Shown: piece by piece, positions 6,764 to 34,533 of the stretch
Layout: every line of letters starts with the position of its first letter
Numbering within the stretch: position 1 is the first letter of the stretch
Origin: a virus
Lineage: Duplodnaviria > Heunggongvirae > Uroviricota > Caudoviricetes
IMG/VR virus record: IMGVR_UViG_3300025913_000024
Span: 1 to 47,477 of that record
Length of the DNA: 47,477 nt
Reading direction: 5' to 3' (one strand)
Made by a program: the position numbers and the translations under genes
Notes under the pieces: model-generated
What the model saw: the letters and a program-made list of their open reading frames with translations, nothing else
What the model was told of the DNA's origin: nothing
Databases searched by the model: none

Positions 6764-9244
6764 TTAGTTAGCCGTAATTTGTTGAACAGTAACGGTTATG
6801 TCGTTAGAAGCAACTGCTACGATGTCATTCCAGTTAGATGGTGCAATATCGTTCAACAATGGAATGGCTGCGACCTCTACTTGCACGATCGTTGACAAGT
6901 AACCTGCAACTTGAGAAGCGTTGGTTGGATCGATTCCAGATGGTACGTTGAAGTAACTAAGAGGAAGAGTCAAGATTCCTGTTGCATAGTCTGGGTTCGA
7001 GGTGTCATAGATCTCAGAGAAGGTCAAGTTGAAGTTGTTGATGTATCGTGTGTCGATCTGGTAACACTGAGCTCCACCAGGAAGAGGAACTTGGAGGTTG
7101 GTAGGGACATCTGAAAGAGCGAAGATCTTCTTGTTACCTTGAGAGTCTGTAACATAAGGTCTGATCTCAAAAGGAGACTGGTTAGAAGATCGTGCCCTGG
7201 TCAAGACGAAAGAAGGAGTTGTTACCTCAGAGATCTGAGGATACTGAGCAAGACGAATTAAACGAGTGTTGTAGTTGTCACCAGTTTCTTGTGGCATCTC
7301 CCAAGCGGTGTTAGGATTGTCCACTGGGAAGGTCTGTCCAGCCAAGTTCTCAGAGTAACCATCGTTGAAAGAGACAGTAGAAGGGTTTCCACCCGTGAAT
7401 AAGTTTCTCTGATCGTAAACCAAGAAGGTTCTGTTAGATTGAGCTGCAGCACTTGGGTTGTTCAAGAAGTTGAGTTCGATCCTGAAGATGTAAGGCGTGT
7501 TCTCCTTGTAACTCTGGAAACCAGAGGACAAAGGAGTCTCTCCATAAACCTTGTCGAAGGTGAAAGGAATGTTAACCAAGGTAGGTAGAACGTTTCCAGA
7601 GTCAATCGTCAAGGTGATGTTTGAGAGAGGTGTATCTGCTAGAGCTTCAAGAAGTGTCTCAACATCATCAGCGAAAGCAAAGGACTTGGCAAGGAAGTTA
7701 AACTCAGAATCTCTGAAGATGGACTTGAAATCTGCAGCAAAGATAGAGAAGTTGTCCAAGAGAAGTTGTTGCTCCATGGCTACGATCTCAGACTCAGAGG
7801 TATCTGTGCTCGTTGTTGAGACAACAACACCTAAAGCGAGAGAGATGATGTTAGGATCAATGTAAGTAAGAACGTCTGTAGGACTCATGAGGTCAGCCAT
7901 AGCTTGAGCAACTGGTCCAACCAAAGTAGCTTGACCATTGGCAAGAGCTGTACCATCACTTGAGATGGCTGTGACATTAACAGTAGAGTACTTTTGATCG
8001 CTAGATGCAATGGTGCCAGGGAAGACCTTGACCTTGTTCAAGCCGACTTGAGAGTAAGTCTTGATTTGAGACTCGTAAGCTCCGATTGTTGCGATAGCGT
8101 AAGAATCTAGATAAGAAGAAGGTGCAGTTTCTCTAAGAGTTGAGATATTGTCAGCGTCAGACCCACCCAAGATTGAGTTGATGTTGGAAGCTTGAAGGAA
8201 CTTTGACACTGCTCCAGTTCTTGGGTCAATGATTGATCCGTTGTTTGGAGGGATGATTCCGGTGATCTGATACTTGGTGTCTAGGTTTCCAAGAGAACCT
8301 GCTGTCTGCAAGTACTCCATGGTGATCTTTGCTCCAGGAGGCAGGGTTGCTCCTGTAACTCCGTCACCTGTCTTGAATAGAACTCCAGAAAGATCTGGTA
8401 GATTCACGGCCTCGAAGACTTGATCTATTGGACCTGCCAACAAGATGTTGTCAGTTTGAAACCACTCGACCTTTTGGTTAGGATCATTCGTGGTGTTGAC
8501 GAAGTACTTTAGAAACTGTCTTGAGATGTTGTTTGAAGCATCTTCGCAGTTATTGACTGGAAGAAGAAAAGACTCAAACTTTGTTCCTTGGGCCATTCCC
8601 AAGTCGTAGCTTTGAATCTTTCCTTGGATGACTGGGATCTCAAGATACTTTATGCCTGACCATCCACCTTGCTGATAGAAGTCTTCAAGTTTTGTTGGGT
8701 CAGATGAGATGTTGCTCCAAGCTTCTTTCAAAGTTCTTGATGCAACGTTCGTTGTTGCTATGTATTGGTATCCGTTAGAGGCCGGGAAGACCGTACCTTC
8801 GATGACCGTGTAACCTTTTGGAAAGGTCCATGGAACCAAGGCTTGGGTTCTTGACAAGACCTGAGGATCTGGGTCTTCTGAGATATCATCAAAGTTGGAT
8901 TGATCATCTAGACCGAAGAAGGTTCGACCAAAGTTAGGAAGTCTTGATGTTCCTTGAGGGTCTGTGTGAGAAACAATGATCACTCCGATGGCACTTCTTG
9001 GTCTGTGAGCTTTGTAAGCGATCAACGGAGCCATGGTCATCAGAGATGAAAGGTTCTGGGCAGCGTTCCACTTCTTCTCAGCGAGCAAGTACTCCATGTA
9101 TCTGGAGATCTCGGCAAGGCCGTCAGAGAATGTTCCGAAAAGAGCTTGAATGGTTCCATTCTCAGAAAGAAGGGCCCAATCAACGTCTGTTCTCATTCTT
9201 GAGAGTAGTCTTGCTAGAATTGCTGAAGGGTCAAAGCGTAACAT
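6764..9244 (-). CDS. Baseplate wedge subunit (T4 gp6/baseplate J-like)
   Basis: 826 aa; N-terminal helical region ending AQNLSSLMTMAPLIAYKAHRPRSA and GGSDADNISTLRETAP..AIAT..Y segment typical of gp6/J-like wedges; follows a gp25-like gene. Confidence 0.75.
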   Translation of the reverse strand: MLRFDPSAILARLLSRMRTDVDWALLSENGTIQALFGTFSDGLAEISRYMEYLLAEKKWNAAQNLSSLMTMAPLIAYKAHRPRSAIGVIIVSHTDPQGTSRLPNFGRTFFGLDDQSNFDDISEDPDPQVLSRTQALVPWTFPKGYTVIEGTVFPASNGYQYIATTNVASRTLKEAWSNISSDPTKLEDFYQQGGWSGIKYLEIPVIQGKIQSYDLGMAQGTKFESFLLPVNNCEDASNNISRQFLKYFVNTTNDPNQKVEWFQTDNILLAGPIDQVFEAVNLPDLSGVLFKTGDGVTGATLPPGAKITMEYLQTAGSLGNLDTKYQITGIIPPNNGSIIDPRTGAVSKFLQASNINSILGGSDADNISTLRETAPSSYLDSYAIATIGAYESQIKTYSQVGLNKVKVFPGTIASSDQKYSTVNVTAISSDGTALANGQATLVGPVAQAMADLMSPTDVLTYIDPNIISLALGVVVSTTSTDTSESEIVAMEQQLLLDNFSIFAADFKSIFRDSEFNFLAKSFAFADDVETLLEALADTPLSNITLTIDSGNVLPTLVNIPFTFDKVYGETPLSSGFQSYKENTPYIFRIELNFLNNPSAAAQSNRTFLVYDQRNLFTGGNPSTVSFNDGYSENLAGQTFPVDNPNTAWEMPQETGDNYNTRLIRLAQYPQISEVTTPSFVLTRARSSNQSPFEIRPYVTDSQGNKKIFALSDVPTNLQVPLPGGAQCYQIDTRYINNFNLTFSEIYDTSNPDYATGILTLPLSYFNVPSGIDPTNASQVAGYLSTIVQVEVAAIPLLNDIAPSNWNDIVAVASNDITVTVQQITAN

Positions 9245-9251
9245 CGTGTTT

Positions 9252-9258
9252 AATTAGT
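9252..9258 (-). promoter_or_regulatory. ACTAATT candidate late promoter
   Basis: 7 nt upstream of ATG 9244, no SD. Confidence 0.65.
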
Positions 9259-9263
9259 GTTTC

Positions 9264-9704
9264 TTATTGAAGATGGGAAATTCCCTGATAAAGGTTTCCA
9301 ACGTATCCTGTTAGAGTATCCTTAGCCACGATCTTAATCCTCCAGCCAACATTGGCATAGTCAGGATCAACGGACAAAGCAAGAATAGCGATAGAAGGGA
9401 ACTGAGCAGAGATAGCATTGAGAAGATCTGCACCGAGTTGTTGAGCACCTTGAGCACTCAAGGTATACTTTCTCAATCCATCAAAGAAACCACCAAAACC
9501 TGGTCGTCTGTAGTAGTCTCCACCTGTTGATTGAAGCCAGATTTCTAGATCGTTGACGATAACTTGACCATATTGGACATCAATTGTCAAAGCTCCAGAA
9601 GGAGGAGTTGAGTACTTGACGTCGAGATAGTTGACAGACTGCTTGTATTGAGAGTTGAGGTTCTTAACACCTTGGCTAATGATAGATCCGACAGAGACGC
9701 TCAT
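9264..9704 (-). CDS. Baseplate gp25-like sheath initiator
   Basis: Start revised to ATG 9704 (TAATG coupling with the upstream stop); NDLEIWLQS..G.YYRRPGFGG motif, size and position typical of gp25/GPW. Confidence 0.7.
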   Translation of the reverse strand: MSVSVGSIISQGVKNLNSQYKQSVNYLDVKYSTPPSGALTIDVQYGQVIVNDLEIWLQSTGGDYYRRPGFGGFFDGLRKYTLSAQGAQQLGADLLNAISAQFPSIAILALSVDPDYANVGWRIKIVAKDTLTGYVGNLYQGISHLQ

Positions 9705-10321
9705 TACATGTACCCCTGAAGAACCCAAGTTTGACCTTGATCTGGTGTAGCATCAAACTGGACCATTCTATACTTGTAGGTGATTGAGTAGTCTGCTCCA
9801 TCTTTGTTCCAACCAAGTTCAAGATCTGGAATAGATGTAGGTTTGAGTCCCCAGAATGAGAACCTAAACTTTGGGATCATTTGATCCCAAAGATAGTCGT
9901 AAACTATGATCTCTGCGTGCTTAAGTTTTCCGACCTTTCCACTGATGAAGGTGTCTCGAACTCTGTCGTAATATCTAGCTAACCATCCTTGATGAAATGT
10001 CCAAACTGGAAGATAGTTTCCTTCATACCATGTGAAAGTGACTTCATTAGGGACATCAACTCCCGTGACAAAGGAATCTCTGTATGAGACGTGAACGTCA
10101 GAGAACTTAAGAGTTGGATTCTTGATTTGAACTCCGTTGCAAAGCAACGCGATGGTCTGAGTGTTGTCTGCGTTGGTGCTATCTTCATATCCGACTTCAT
10201 CGGTTATCTGAACTTGAAGAAGGTTCGGATTGAATGTGGTTCTAAAGACTGAACCATCAACCAACGGGGATGTAAAGGTTCCACCGTTAGCGCCTGCAAT
10301 CGTTAAAATGTCGTTAGCCAT
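9704..10321 (-). CDS. Tail tube-like paralogue (gp48/gp54-type tube initiator)
   Basis: 205 aa; VTFTWYE...W and FSFWGLKPTSI...ITYKY pattern of the gp19 fold; most divergent of four tandem paralogues; SD AAGGA. Confidence 0.55.
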   Translation of the reverse strand: MANDILTIAGANGGTFTSPLVDGSVFRTTFNPNLLQVQITDEVGYEDSTNADNTQTIALLCNGVQIKNPTLKFSDVHVSYRDSFVTGVDVPNEVTFTWYEGNYLPVWTFHQGWLARYYDRVRDTFISGKVGKLKHAEIIVYDYLWDQMIPKFRFSFWGLKPTSIPDLELGWNKDGADYSITYKYRMVQFDATPDQGQTWVLQGYM

Positions 10322-20943: not shown

Positions 20944-22044
20944 TTACTCTCCTTCTAATTCATTTTCTCCGAAGTTAAATGCTTCGGAGTATCTTTGATG
21001 CAAACTTGATCTAATTGTGTCTAACCATTTTCGTTTTCTAAAGGACTCAACGGTCTTATTTAACTTTTTGGTTATGTCGCCAACATCCTTAATATACATG
21101 GTTTTAACTACGTGGGTTTTAGGATCAATACCTTGATATTGAATCTTTGGGATCTCAAGAATTGAGAAAGAAAATCCTAATTCTTCTTTTAGTTTTTTGA
21201 CTACTTTCATCCCAGCGATGTCTCTATCTGGAATTAGAATGATTTGAGAAAATCTTTTTAGCAGATGAATCTGCCTACGAGAAATTGATGCGCCAAAGAT
21301 GGCTGTGCTGTTCTTGAAAAAAGGATCTGTTCTAAGGATCGCTAGGTCCATTAATCCTTCAACAACATAAAGGGGTTTTGTTGGATCTAAGTTCTCAAGA
21401 TCATAAAGAGAAGAAACTGTTGTGCCAACAGGATATAGAACCTTTTTATCTTGATCACCAACTACGTCTCGACCTTCAATCGAGATTAGTTTATCGCCTT
21501 CGTAGATGGGTATGACCAATCTGTTAGTAAAATGAGTGTAGTAATCTAGTTCTTTAGAACCCTTGATCTTGATATTAGATGCCCAACCCATTTGCATGGC
21601 ATGTGCCACTTCAAACGGGATGCCTCTAGATCGTAGGTACTTAACAGCTAAGGGACTACTTGAAAATGGTTCAATCGAGCCTTCTTTCATCTCAATTTGA
21701 ACATCTTTATCCAGGATATCTAAGTTTTCTTGTTCGTAATTAGAATGATACTCCATCGCTTGTTGATGGAACTCATCGTTCGAAAGGCCGAGATCTTGGT
21801 AAAGAGATCTCTCTGTGAGATCCCAATACATACCTGCAATTGTTCCAGATTTACTGCAACCAAAACAGTGATAAATGCCGAGATCTACGTTGACTGCACA
21901 AGAAGCAGTCTTCTCATCATGAAATGGGCATCGAATAAAGATGCGATGGTGCCAAGAACGTTCTGGCGTGGCACAATGTAAGTGTAATCTATGAACGGCT
22001 TCAGATACCAAAACTTTTGGATCTATCGTGTGTTGGAGAGGCAT
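20944..22044 (-). CDS. dnaG: DNA primase (CHC2 zinc finger + TOPRIM)
   Basis: RCPFHDEKTAS...YHCFGC zinc finger; RLVIPI, VVEGLMD and IPDRDIAG TOPRIM motifs. Confidence 0.92.
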   Translation of the reverse strand: MPLQHTIDPKVLVSEAVHRLHLHCATPERSWHHRIFIRCPFHDEKTASCAVNVDLGIYHCFGCSKSGTIAGMYWDLTERSLYQDLGLSNDEFHQQAMEYHSNYEQENLDILDKDVQIEMKEGSIEPFSSSPLAVKYLRSRGIPFEVAHAMQMGWASNIKIKGSKELDYYTHFTNRLVIPIYEGDKLISIEGRDVVGDQDKKVLYPVGTTVSSLYDLENLDPTKPLYVVEGLMDLAILRTDPFFKNSTAIFGASISRRQIHLLKRFSQIILIPDRDIAGMKVVKKLKEELGFSFSILEIPKIQYQGIDPKTHVVKTMYIKDVGDITKKLNKTVESFRKRKWLDTIRSSLHQRYSEAFNFGENELEGE

Positions 22045-22061
22045 ATTTAACCCTTGATGTG

Positions 22062-22077
22062 TGTAATATAAGTTACA
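22062..22077. promoter_or_regulatory. Palindromic operator-like box 1 (TGTAA-N6-TTACA)
   Basis: TGTAATATAAGTTACA in the primase upstream region. Confidence 0.5.
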
Positions 22078-22102
22078 TTACTATGAAATTCTAACACCAA
22101 TG

Positions 22103-22118
22103 TGTAACTTGTGTCACA
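22103..22118. promoter_or_regulatory. Palindromic operator-like box 2 (CRP-like)
   Basis: TGTAACTTGTGTCACA; minus strand reads taaTGTGAcacaagTTACA, one core mismatch from TGTGA-N6-TCACA. Confidence 0.5.
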
Positions 22119-22601
22119 TTATCTTCTAGCGAATGGAAGTGAAGGGCTCGTATTAGTCGATGGTGATTTAACGCTTATGTCTAGAGGGTTGGGAATAGCT
22201 TCTAGAGCAGGAATGGTCGGAACTACTCCAGCCAAGTTCTCTGCAGGGTTAATAGATTCTTTATCTTTTTGTGCTCTAGCCTTAGCTTGAATGTTAAGTT
22301 CCTTCTGTCTATTGATGATCTGTTCGGACATGGGTCCTAATCGTTCCAATCGAAGCCTTTCTCTATCAAGAAGCCAGAACACACCGTAGCTATTCAAAGC
22401 TTCTGAGATTCTAGAGCCATATTGAGGTCCGATTGTTTCATTGGTCAACTTCAAGAATTCTTCAAATGAAAGTAGTCTGTAATCTTCGTCCCCGTCTGGT
22501 TGAACCTTAACCATCTCTCTGGTAGGATCACAGGAGAAAGTCAAAAAGTAATAGCTTAGGAGAGATGGGTTCGATAACTGAACCATGGGAGTCTTAGTCA
22601 T
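22119..22601 (-). CDS. Hypothetical protein, probably late-expressed
   Basis: 160-aa ORF; ACTAACT 4 nt upstream of the ATG. Confidence 0.65.
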   Translation of the reverse strand: MTKTPMVQLSNPSLLSYYFLTFSCDPTREMVKVQPDGDEDYRLLSFEEFLKLTNETIGPQYGSRISEALNSYGVFWLLDRERLRLERLGPMSEQIINRQKELNIQAKARAQKDKESINPAENLAGVVPTIPALEAIPNPLDISVKSPSTNTSPSLPFARR

Positions 22602-22605
22602 GATC

Positions 22606-22612
22606 AGTTAGT
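22606..22612 (-). promoter_or_regulatory. ACTAACT candidate late promoter
   Basis: 4 nt upstream of ATG 22601. Confidence 0.6.
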
Positions 22613-22760
22613 CTCTATCTTCAACCTCTTCTCAATTTGGGCTGGCCCTAAGTATTTCTATTCTTATTATGTTAGATTCTTATATATGCTATCTGACTTG
22701 CACACTGTTCATAGTAGTCAATCTAACAAACTATAGACTAAATAGATAAAACATAATTCA

Positions 22761-22803
22761 TTTACGGTGAACAGGTTCTCGAGTATACTCTGTCAATAAG
22801 GAG
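22761..22803 (+). promoter_or_regulatory. Sigma70-type promoter and SD of the polymerase fragment
   Basis: TTTACG (22761-22766), 17 nt, TATACT (22784-22789); AT-rich upstream tract; AAGGAG (22798-22803) 7 nt before TTG 22811. Confidence 0.65.
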
Positions 22804-22810
22804 TACGGGG

Positions 22811-23767
22811 TTGTTAAAGATTACACCACGAACTGTCAGACGCCAAATCAAAGACGCTGCCGAGTTCATCCAGTACAAAAACATCTCTCCAATGGAAGAG
22901 ATGAGACAAGACGCAAAGCCTGTGAACTTCGGACTTATGTTCGGGTCCAGTGCCAGAACGTTCGTTAACGCTGTTCTAGAAACCCGTTGGACAGAACAGC
23001 AGTGTGACGATTACATAGAGTCCAACAACCTCTATGACTTAAAAGACCAAATCATCGCTAGGAACCCAAGAGACACCCCTGTGTTTTGGAAGTACTTGAC
23101 CTGTGCCTCAGACATTCGAAACAAGTTCTTCAACACCTACAAAGGACTGAAGGAAAGAATCGACCGAGAAAGGGTCTTTGCTTATCAGCACGGATACGTC
23201 AGAAGTTGGCATGGCCAGGTAAGAAGAATCCCAGAGCTCTTCATCATGGACCACACTGATGCAGGTCGACCATCTGGAGACGACAACTCTCTTTACTCTA
23301 GGGTCATCTGAAACCTTCAGAACATTGCTTCTAACACCTCTATTCAGAATTTCGAAGCAAGCATAGTCATGCCTGCCATCATTGAACTTCATATGTGGTT
23401 TCATGAGAACAAGATGAAGAGCTTCATCTGGAACTCTGTTCACGACTCTATTGACCTTTGCATCTATCGACCAGAGTTGGACATCGTGGCAGCTAAGATC
23501 AAAGAAGTCTGTACAGACTCTAAGATCTACAAGAACCTTGGTCTTTTCAAAGATTGGGGACTTAACATGGATATCGACATGATGGTAGCTGACTTGACAG
23601 ACCCCAATGAGTACTACAAGGGTGGAAAGAAGTACAAGTTCAAGGACGATGTCGAGGTTACTCCTTCTACGAAGATCAAGATAGACCCAAAGCTTAGAGA
23701 GATGGAAGAAGCTTGGTTCCCAAAGAAGAAAGTTCCAACCCGTAAAGTACGGTCTCAAAAGTCTTGA
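22811..23767 (+). CDS. polA: Family A DNA polymerase, C-terminal half (motifs B and C), interrupted by in-frame TGA at 23309-23311
   Basis: RQDAKPVNFGLMFG (motif B), GYVRSWHGQVRRIP, NTSIQ and WNSVHDSI (motif C). ORFs 22811..23311 and 23369..23767 are in one frame separated only by one TGA. Motif A and exonuclease domain absent. Confidence 0.85.
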
Positions 23768-23777
23768 GATATTGTAG
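23765..23777 (+). promoter_or_regulatory. TGAGATATT-type motif (candidate early/middle promoter)
   Basis: TGAGATATTGTAG just before the ligase ATG; identical 13-mer at 46845. Confidence 0.4.
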
Positions 23778-23779
23778 CC

Positions 23780-25159
23780 ATGCTTGAAGCCTCATTTCCC
23801 AGCTTGCGCTCCTTCGTTCAGGAGTGCCAGGCGAATACTTCCTCGAACGCTAAGAAAGAGATTCTTACCAGGTACCCTGACCTGAAAGAGATTTTTCAGT
23901 ACGTTTACAATCCGTACATCAAGTTCTACACCACCTCTGACAACGTGAAAAAACAGAGCAAGGCTCTTCAGAGTGAAGGTCCGAACCTCTTTGGAGGGAA
24001 GGGATTGCCTCTTGGAAATCTCAACGTCCTTCACGGAGCTCCTGCTCCTAAGGACTTCAAGGAAGTCTTGGATCAACTCTCAGCCAGAACCTTGTCTGGT
24101 TTTGAAGGAATCAAAGCCATCCTCAAGGTTGTCAAGAACAACAAGCTCTATGAGGATCTGATCTACATGATCCTGGACAAGGATCTGAAAGTTCGAATCG
24201 ATGTCAAGTCGATCAACAAGGTCTATCCTAAGTTGATCCCGACCTTCAACGTGGCTTTGGCCAACAAGTACAAGGACGTTGAGGATAAGGTTGACTTCGG
24301 AGCTGATGAGTGGTTCGCCTCTCACAAGCTGGACGGTTTCCGTTGCATCACGGTTGTGGATGGAAACGGAAAGGTCACTTGTTACACTAGAACAGGAAAT
24401 GAGTACAAGACCTTAGGTCGAGTGATCGAAGAGATCAAGCGTCTTTATCCCACCTTGAGAAACACCGTGTTTGATGGTGAACTCTGCATCGTGGATGAAA
24501 AGGGAGCTGAGCACTTCGACTGGATGCAAAAAGAGTGGAACAAAGACAACCACACCATTGCCTTCCCAAGGTATAAACTCTTTGACATGTTGACCCTCGA
24601 CGAGTTCACGACTGAAGAATCTACCAGAGATCTTCTTACCCGTCTTGAGGCCTTGAATGACATGCTTCTTCCTTCCAAGATCCTTAACATGCTCGAACAA
24701 AAGATAGTTATGAGCAAGATTCATCTTGATGATATGGCCAAAGACGCCGATGATAAGGGTTGGGAAGGTTTGATCATCAGAAAGAACGCTCCTTACCTTG
24801 GAAAGCGCAGCAACGATCTTCTCAAGGTCAAGACGTTCGAAGATATTGAAGTTGTAGTTGAAGGTATTGAAACCGGACCCTTCAGGTACGTCAAGAACAA
24901 AGCCGAAGCCGAAGAAGAGATGATGACCTCCATTTACTTCACATTCTTTAGCGAAAAGCTTCAGAAGAGTAACCGTGTGGACGTCGGCTCTGGTTTCTCA
25001 ATCGAACAGCGTCAAAGGTTCTTTGCTCACCCTGAGGAGATCATTGGAAAGACCATCACGGTTAAGTACTTTGAAGAAACAATTAACTCAGATACAGGAC
25101 TTCCTTCTTTGCGTTTTCCAGTGTTGAAGACCATCTGGGAAAATGGGAGAGATGAATAA
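23780..25159 (+). CDS. lig: ATP-dependent DNA ligase
   Basis: KLDGFR (motif I), FDGEL, KLFDML, EGLIIRK, KVK, VGSGF and LRFP motifs. Confidence 0.93.
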   Translation: MLEASFPSLRSFVQECQANTSSNAKKEILTRYPDLKEIFQYVYNPYIKFYTTSDNVKKQSKALQSEGPNLFGGKGLPLGNLNVLHGAPAPKDFKEVLDQLSARTLSGFEGIKAILKVVKNNKLYEDLIYMILDKDLKVRIDVKSINKVYPKLIPTFNVALANKYKDVEDKVDFGADEWFASHKLDGFRCITVVDGNGKVTCYTRTGNEYKTLGRVIEEIKRLYPTLRNTVFDGELCIVDEKGAEHFDWMQKEWNKDNHTIAFPRYKLFDMLTLDEFTTEESTRDLLTRLEALNDMLLPSKILNMLEQKIVMSKIHLDDMAKDADDKGWEGLIIRKNAPYLGKRSNDLLKVKTFEDIEVVVEGIETGPFRYVKNKAEAEEEMMTSIYFTFFSEKLQKSNRVDVGSGFSIEQRQRFFAHPEEIIGKTITVKYFEETINSDTGLPSLRFPVLKTIWENGRDE

Positions 25160-33411: not shown

Positions 33412-34533
33412 ATGCAAAATTGGACAATTTCAAAACGACCCACAAAACTCTCAGAGCTTTGGGGTCTCGAAGGTCTGAAGACTTATCTATCAGACAATAA
33501 ATTTCCAAAAGCCCTACTGTTCCGTGGACAGTTTGGGTCAGGAAAAACTACCGTAGCAAAGATCATCGCTTCAATGTTGGTCTGTCAAAACCCTGGTGAT
33601 CATGGAGATCCTTGTTGTGAGTGTGCCTCGTGTAAGGCAGTTATCAACGAGACTTGGGATCGTGACGTTCAGATGATCGACGGAGGAAACTCCGGAAAGT
33701 CTGATGTTCAAGATAGGATCTCAGAGTTCGTAGCAACTGGACCTTTCTATGATCGAAACAAGGTCATGATCATTGAAGAGATTCAAGAGCTATCAGACGC
33801 AGCAAGGAACTCTTTGCTCAAGTACCTAGAAGCTCCAAGAGAGAAGATCTACTTCATCCTCTTGTCCATGGAACTCTCTAAGAGTTCAGGCTTCAACTCA
33901 AGAACAGTTCCTTTCAACTTTAACCCTGCTCCTGTCAAAGACATCATGCTCTACCTTAAGACCATGATGGAATCAGAAGGTCTTTGGAACGACGAGAACA
34001 TTCCAAAAGAGTTCAAGATCAAAGGTCTTGCTACCATCGCCCAGACTTCGTCTGGTAGTTATCGACAGGCTCTTCAGACTCTTGAGCAAGCTCTTAAGGG
34101 AAAGTTCTACACACCTGAGTCCATCAGAGACAACATGGGATTGGTGGACGATGAAGAGGCTGTCGAGGTTCTTCTTCAGTTGATGGATCTTGATGTTGAG
34201 GTCTTCACCAAGATCTACAAGAACAAGAACCTCTTCCAGTTCTTTGGAATCGCTATCAGAATTCTTGGAGATGCCAAGGTCTATAAGACTCTTGACTTCC
34301 TCCCATACGAGGACAACACTCCTTTTGCTGAGAACACCAAGAGAGTTGCTGGACACAAAAACCTAAATGCTTTGGTCAAGACCTTTATGGATCTTGAACC
34401 TCTTTCAAAGCCCTATCTCAGAGATGCCGAGTTCATTCTCCATCTTGTGAAGTTCTTTGAAGATAACCAAGGACCTTCTGGAGTTACAAGAATCCAAGAA
34501 CCTGTGGTTAGAACAAGGGCGGTAAAGCAGTAA
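33412..34533 (+). CDS. dnaX: DnaX (gamma/tau)-like clamp loader ATPase
   Basis: KRPTKLSELWG, GQFGSGKTT, zinc-site cysteines (VCQNP...PCCECASC), IIEEIQEL and SRT motifs. Confidence 0.85.
   Translation: MQNWTISKRPTKLSELWGLEGLKTYLSDNKFPKALLFRGQFGSGKTTVAKIIASMLVCQNPGDHGDPCCECASCKAVINETWDRDVQMIDGGNSGKSDVQDRISEFVATGPFYDRNKVMIIEEIQELSDAARNSLLKYLEAPREKIYFILLSMELSKSSGFNSRTVPFNFNPAPVKDIMLYLKTMMESEGLWNDENIPKEFKIKGLATIAQTSSGSYRQALQTLEQALKGKFYTPESIRDNMGLVDDEEAVEVLLQLMDLDVEVFTKIYKNKNLFQFFGIAIRILGDAKVYKTLDFLPYEDNTPFAENTKRVAGHKNLNALVKTFMDLEPLSKPYLRDAEFILHLVKFFEDNQGPSGVTRIQEPVVRTRAVKQ

Follow-up and report, generated by a model that had tools for sequence, protein, structure and literature searches.

Family-A DNA polymerases are textbook single-chain polymerases (Klenow, Taq, T7), and the locus studied here raises the question of how a phage gene that encodes solely the motif B/C part of such an enzyme might take part in DNA synthesis. 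The window, i.e. the whole stretch of DNA that was analysed, covers positions 1 to 47,477 of an IMG/VR virus record that is 111,477 nt long and has a CheckV completeness of 35%. The gene in question, here referred to as the C-half gene, is located on the plus strand at 22811..23767; it has 318 codons, from a TTG start at 22811 to a TGA stop at 23765-23767, and its ORF, its PF00476 match, its alignment with Klenow and AF2/Foldseek identify it as one part of a split family-A DNA polymerase (fingers O-helix/motif B plus palm motif C). We report that this stand-alone motif B/C gene is real and that its anatomy is confirmed. Its product probably represents the C-terminal subunit of a two-piece family-A polymerase, which most likely replicates the genome of a ~300-kb jumbo phage and whose halves would associate without being joined.

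The initial annotation described an ORF that opens approximately 30 aa ahead of motif B and lacks motif A, the thumb and the exonuclease domain. Motif B (22904..22945; R32, K36, N39-F40 and F44-G45, aligned to Klenow RRSAKAINFGLIYG) does begin at residue 32, and in the family profile R32, K36, F40 and F44, which follow the pattern RxxxKxxxFxxxYG, align with Klenow SEQRRSAKAINFGLIYG. Motif C (HDSID, with D212 as the catalytic Asp) is located at 23441..23455, where H211-D212 align with VHDE of Klenow. Among 40 C-halves with 29-61% identity, R32, K36, H211 and D212 are invariant while N39, F40, F44, S213 and D215 are conserved at 90% or more, and throughout the C-half clade the Glu that follows the motif C Asp in Pol I is replaced by Ser (HDS and not HDE), which is a point against the two-piece reading. 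The PF00476 match covers profile positions 192-358 of 381 only, i.e. the motif A Asp, the thumb and the 3'-5' exonuclease are not on the same polypeptide; none of the frames of the polymerase ORF in the record shows a motif A pattern, and the search of the record gave no PF01612 match. The AF2 model of the C-half has a mean pLDDT of 84.9, with the first 15 residues predicted as coil, and it shows the fingers/palm fold: the PDB matches listed by Foldseek (Bst, Klenow, KlenTaq and Pol theta) all belong to family A and have a probability of 1.00.

The start of the gene is equally well defined. An AAGGAG Shine-Dalgarno sequence is present at 22799-22804 (plus strand), 6 nt ahead of the TTG, and AAGGAG or GAGGAG occupies the same place in L007 and L008; the ATG codons of L010, L007 and L008 align with the TTG at 22811, and homologues begin with MLKI, in agreement with the ribosome binding site and the start codon proposed earlier. 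The basic leader noted at the same time corresponds to approximately residues 1-11 (MLKITPRTVRR, 22811..22843); it carries a conserved MLKIxKxTV start, is extra relative to contiguous PolAs (absent from contiguous relatives free of the insertion described below), and is proposed to act as a docking strand. Upstream, the expected non-coding stretch of about 200 nt followed by an opposite-strand gene was found to be 209 nt (22602-22810), beyond which a 160-aa gene is located at 22119-22601 on the minus strand. All upstream frames are closed over these 209 nt, and the missing part can indeed not be recovered by repair of indels.

The C-half gene lies among replication genes, with a DnaG-type primase gene nearby (20944-22044, minus strand), an ATP-dependent ligase gene directly after it (23780-25159), and genes for a clamp-loader-like ATPase, a PD-(D/E)XK nuclease, RecA, a 5'-3' exonuclease and ThyX in the surroundings. 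The clamp-loader-like gene (33412-34533; DNA_pol3_delta2, E 1e-28) is found in a phage record that has no Pol III alpha or PolB match. We also observed that the C-half stop codon constitutes the first three bases of a 13-mer, TGAGATATTGTAG (23765-23777), which ends 2 nt ahead of the ligase ATG at 23780; if TGAGATATTGTAG were to act as an extended -10 promoter, the ligase mRNA would have almost no leader.

In the record, the gene is interrupted by an in-frame TGA (23309..23311, plus strand), which the initial annotation does not mention and which stands in place of the codon for a conserved Gly. A 74-kb Logan contig of sequencing run X1 (depth 12.7) differs from the record over 22400-24000 at this site only, where T>G at 23309 gives GGA, i.e. 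Gly. Likewise, P0002, which is encoded on a 305,833-nt contig and is otherwise 100% identical over its 291 residues, has Gly at the TGA position, as do most homologues, and every homologue reads through. Hence the C-half gene is intact in another assembly, and the TGA at 23309 is likely a base error or minor variant and not a signal. Reading of TGA as a residue (translation table 4 or 25) was considered and rejected, since TGA is a true stop for 40 of the 124 ORFs in the phage record and readthrough would fuse the C-half to the ligase gene. The sequencing runs listed as containing the sequence include no RNA run.

With respect to expression, a sigma-70-like promoter (TTTACG-17-TATACT) had been proposed immediately upstream. 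The match exists (22761..22789, plus strand; 9 of 12 positions), but such sites occur at chance frequency (three found versus 3.1 expected) and this one is not conserved in L010. A candidate for the real promoter is a conserved AT-rich element, GTATTT...ATTCTTATATA, at 22640..22690 (no strand assigned), which is common to the regions upstream of the C-half gene (window and L010) and upstream of the N-half gene in L023. Part of it, a 30-nt stretch at 22660-22689, has a second context in run X1, at equal depth (~12) and with flanks that resemble the first ones without being identical, and the Logan contigs of this run end at the repeat (assembly-graph branch at 22660-22690). No second copy was detected in the 111-kb record and IMG/VR gave no match; the two contexts suggest that the regulatory region upstream of the C-half gene is present a second time elsewhere in the same phage genome.

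We then considered how widespread the split is. A word-index search gave 29 C-half relatives, nearly all of 234-311 aa, on contigs of up to 305 kb (some 274-305 kb), and an exhaustive HMMER search gave 6,468 relatives; among its best 150 cluster representatives, 66 are shorter than 400 aa and 71 have 600 aa or more. At least 55 of these best 150 representatives (clustered at the 50% identity level) start at profile positions 1-15, many with MLKI, such that the same break is seen across a large clade of related genomes. By comparison, a close C-half relative is absent from 50,697 GenBank phage records, in which the best match has 26% identity. In a quick tree, from which rows classed as 'unclear' were left out, the window C-half pairs with P0003 (support 99) within a 56-row clade (support 98) comprising 49 split and seven contiguous rows, and no fewer than 9-11 switches between the two states are required to explain the tree. 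The DNA pairs available for the C-half are only 51-58% identical in protein, and synonymous sites are therefore saturated.

Genes that complement the C-half were found in relatives. In G001 and G002 the C-half gene, one ORF and a 671-aa N-half gene follow each other on the same strand, and in G004, G005 and G006 the PF00476 profile is divided between two ORFs, one of each, with positions 2-199 in the N-half ORF and positions 200-376 in the C-half ORF, at distances of 4, 38 and 31 kb, respectively. The G004 genome (284.7 kb) is 96% complete and that of G005 (170.6 kb) has terminal repeats; the partner gene occurs once each along with the C-half gene in G004, G005, G006, L013, L024 and L032. The N-half family members range between 540 and 790 aa and are encoded on contigs of up to 334 kb, and their nearest sequence relatives are from T5-like Vibrio and Proteus phages (~27% identity). 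P0096-type N-halves retain motif A, the Asp of which (D599) is invariant among 12 N-halves and contiguous relatives; in alignments of both halves to P0235, a contiguous relative, these N-halves stop exactly at the point where the C-halves begin. Searches of G000, G004 and G005 with PF00136 (PolB) and PF07733 (Pol III alpha) gave no match, nor was PolB or Pol III alpha matched in the window's record or the near-complete relatives; in the latter, each half is present once and no further polymerase was detected. Because there is one of each half, the break is conserved and the N-half ends are complementary, an active site formed by two polypeptides, which the initial annotation had listed as one option, is favoured.

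For the window's own phage the N-half was sought in the 111-kb record with PF00476 and PF01612, with the L013 N-half, P0235:230-720 and P0256:330-491, and with profiles A2 and A5, and it was not found. Since the record represents ~35% of the genome, leaving ~195 kb outside it, this is not evidence of absence, and we infer from the relatives that the gene is located outside the 111-kb record. In L023 the N-half (P0096) fills the syntenic slot that in the window is occupied by the C-half, next to a block of 191-aa, 95-aa, primase and 160-aa genes. A metagenome scan with A3, which is one narrow pattern, gave no contig carrying both an N-half and a window-type C-half. For the window's subclade an N-half is postulated on the basis of relatives that are 35-40% identical.

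The break site itself carries additional sequence. Most contiguous relatives have ~60 aa from motif A to motif B, whereas those nested in the split clade have 112-122 aa and the combination of P0096 with the window C-half has 127 aa; the break thus carries ~55-65 extra residues, of which ~45-50 are on the N-half tail and ~10 on the C-half leader. Tails are present at two break sites, and hhalign indicates that the two are homologous (96%). Each has as its best PDB match residues 85-105 of the NrdJ-1 intein, which we take to be the end of its N fragment, with E values of 0.029 and 0.0025 over ~21 residues, i.e. a borderline match. The leader profile (26 positions) gave no intein and only chance-level matches against PDB, the leader being too short to place, and Pfam scans of single tails were at chance level (Hint_2 at E 0.16 for one member). 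As judged by these sequence matches, tail and leader together possibly represent a non-splicing relic of a split intein that acts as a clasp.

The initial annotation had called for an AlphaFold-multimer type check of the two halves. For this, residues 400-694 of P0096 (from L023, and therefore a stand-in for the N-half from another phage) were modelled together with residues 1-285 of the window C-half. The palm was rebuilt with a score of 0.72, compared to 0.02 for the best of three controls; of 80 solved complexes 58 attain this mark, as do two of 110 mismatched pairs, counts that are approximate given that own alignments were used. The runs agree in at least 88% of the contacts, and the partner pLDDT is at least 77. 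In the model, N-half residues 592-597, which form the motif A strand, pair with C-half residues 215-220, just after HDSID, while the DxHSxT helix touches K36 and C-half residues 1-13 touch N-half residues 669-693. The score may reflect likeness to solved single-chain PolA structures and not binding.

Taken together, the following arrangement is proposed. The C-half would supply the O-helix (motif B with R32, K36 and F40) and the motif C Asp D212, and a separate N-half of ~680-720 aa would supply a UDG-like domain, the 3'-5' exonuclease, the thumb and the motif A Asp. The two proteins would associate and never be joined, with the palm sheet completed by pairing between the motif A strand that the N-half provides and the C-half's motif C hairpin, and with the N-half tail (~45-50 aa) clasping the C-half leader (~10 aa). 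Tail and leader would represent an insertion that ordinary contiguous relatives do not have, possibly a split-intein relic that has lost splicing. An N-half in the window's phage, binding between the halves, activity of the complex and an intein origin of the clasp are inferred.

This two-piece form is one of several architectures among the relatives, which also include a contiguous form (L044 and L049), adjacent genes in the order N then C (L032), a break only before motif A (L037), three pieces with a motif A mini-protein of 129-148 aa (L038 and L042), a permuted order (L013), and a C-half with a motif A segment at its C-terminus (P0256). In P0256 (491 aa) the motif A segment (SDFNSLEAR...GDLHSQTA) follows motif C, such that piece 3 is fused to piece 2 in permuted order. 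The permuted relatives have a 243-aa ORF rich in Lys, Ala and Glu, without a family match, between their C-half and N-half genes (L013:5896-6627). Moreover, a 255-aa ORF (L042:8539-9306) that separates the gene for piece 1 from that for the 148-aa motif A mini-protein has a weak SegE-type GIY-YIG match (E 0.0056, below the Pfam cut-off), and in L008, a relative with 51% identity, a TnsA-like/NUMOD3 endonuclease ORF (9160-10020) overlaps the C-half start by 20 nt. In the window the C-half gene is flanked by the 160-aa gene and the ligase gene and does not show the homing-endonuclease 'genes in pieces' arrangement. Intein-like inserts, for which Intein_splicing is below the Pfam cut-off, were detected in the contiguous PolAs P0265 (~580-880) and P0344 (residues 269-613); one of them is in a PN/QNIP motif ~30 residues ahead of the first break site, and the other, with a LAGLIDADG match, is in the exonuclease domain. 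A wider reading, about which we are somewhat more doubtful than confident, is that this clade of jumbo phages has an obligate heterodimeric family-A polymerase, with the Asp residues on separate chains encoded up to tens of kb apart and an intein-relic clasp, and that the same relic at a second break, before motif A, has given rise to the two-piece, three-piece and permuted forms.

The proposal of a two-piece enzyme has to be weighed against several alternatives. That the split is an artefact, i.e. a misjoin within 22600-22850 or two ORFs divided by a true stop at 23309, would fit the ends of the Logan contigs of run X1 at the 30-nt repeat with its second context and the TGA that the record itself reads. 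We consider this very improbable since L010, which is 58% identical and whose genes are 47-65% identical to those of the window, has the same order, with Metallophos, small genes, the primase and the 150-aa gene on one strand and the C-half and ligase genes on the other; this confirms the join, and at least 55 cluster representatives begin at the same residue. Two separate ORFs are also difficult to reconcile with the N-T-x-I-Q segment after the TGA, in which no start codon appears before 23369, and with the homologues, all of which read through this position. A decaying remnant or pseudogene, in a phage that replicates with another or a host enzyme, had been named as an option; it is decidedly unlikely, even if the in-frame TGA, the N-half not found on the 111 kb and the nearby clamp-loader-like gene, which could hint at another replicase, can be cited in its favour. 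Against it stand the GGA of the independent assembly and of the otherwise identical P0002, the catalytic residues that are invariant across the 40 homologues, the conserved start position, and the PolB and Pol III alpha searches without match in the record and the near-complete relatives.

It is also conceivable, if rather unlikely, that the C-half in the window's subclade works without a PolA N-half, for example with another partner or as a regulatory or DNA-binding factor. In L007, L008 and L010, which are the closest relatives, the 10-kb flanks of the C-half contain no N-half, and none from the 274-305 kb contigs of the subclade was among the matches listed in the word-index searches for N-halves. 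Those searches were incomplete (one of them scored only 8000 candidates, and sequences from its own query alignment such as P0096 were not among the matches listed), a flank of 10 kb says little when the halves are 31-38 kb apart in relatives, and the retained dNTP- and metal-binding residues make sense only beside a motif A strand. Joining of the halves, by a split intein after translation or by RNA trans-splicing before it, trans-splicing being a further option raised initially, has the smallest probability of all. The N-half tails do resemble the end of the NrdJ-1 split-intein N fragment, and the related P0265 and P0344 appear to have intact inteins; yet the tail alignment lacks a Cys1/Ser1 block and TxxH, the leader lacks a terminal HN followed by a Cys, Ser or Thr nucleophile, and contiguous relatives keep tail and leader in frame in the mature protein. 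Moreover, no Rfam match, and hence no Rfam intron, was found in 21900-24100, and the C-half gene has its own Shine-Dalgarno sequence and conserved start. We therefore retain two polypeptides that associate without being joined as the preferred reading.

Other phages have divided polymerase genes, and some T4-like phages encode a split family-B enzyme, gp43A/gp43B. The split family-B polymerase of PhiKZ (DNAP-N/DNAP-C) has been demonstrated both in cryo-EM structures and in activity assays (Basu et al. 2026 preprint, PMC13648687). These systems resemble what is proposed here in that a stable jumbo-phage complex is built from two polypeptides, but they belong to family B and not A; while the PhiKZ complex has been demonstrated experimentally, the C-half system is known from sequence and a model. 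In group 2.2 jumbo phages the catalytic module of a minimal Pol III alpha is divided between two stand-alone proteins whose genes are far apart (Iyer et al. 2021, PMC7824862); that enzyme has a Pol beta-like fold and accompanies a family-B polymerase, whereas in the near-complete relatives no polymerase was detected other than the split enzyme described here.

For family A, the PolA of S-SBP1-like T7-like cyanophages is split into exo and pol genes, which was called the first case for PolAs (Czernecki et al. 2023, PMC10201439). Both are two-gene family-A phage polymerases and the S-SBP1-like products are likewise predicted to reassemble unjoined, but there the break is at the exo/pol boundary, the genes are adjacent and arose through a 1-nt deletion. 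The C-half does not have a break of this type: here it is inside the polymerase domain (PF00476 ~199/200) between motifs A and B, such that the two catalytic Asp residues are on different chains, the genes are up to tens of kb apart, and ~55-65 extra residues are present at the break. The literature that we found has family-A splits at the exo/pol boundary only and no description of a split-PolA clade of jumbo phages; 'split DNA polymerases' are mentioned without biochemistry for a cyanophage lineage (10.1101/325100) and OM43 phages (PMC10580990). UDG-PolA and T5-like polymerases, the nearest sequence relatives of the N-halves, are contiguous and not close, and some relatives carry an N-terminal UDG (P0166).

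With respect to how such a break might arise, homing endonucleases have produced 'genes in pieces' in Aeh1 (nrdA-a/mobE/nrdA-b; PMC2988022) and split inteins 'fractured genes' (Dassa et al. 2009, PMC2677866; NrdJ-1 intein, PDB 8ubs). In these cases, as here, an essential enzyme is broken near its active site, and further parallels are the weak GIY-YIG match at the break in L042 and the N-tails that resemble the end of an N-intein. In contrast to them, the break in the window has no endonuclease gene, the halves are not adjacent and the splicing residues are absent; any intein would thus be a relic.

As a practical consequence, genes of 270-320 aa that appear as 'partial DNA polymerase I' should not be annotated as pseudogenes, the TGA in the present record being a likely base error. 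If the proposed two-piece enzyme is true, a natural and conserved break within the catalytic domain would demonstrate that two proteins can together reconstitute the palm sheet and the fingers, and this in the apparent sole replicase of a large phage clade. Such an enzyme would constitute a natural template for the engineering of split polymerases, and the clade would provide a test case for how mobile elements such as inteins and homing endonucleases fracture essential genes and leave association modules behind.
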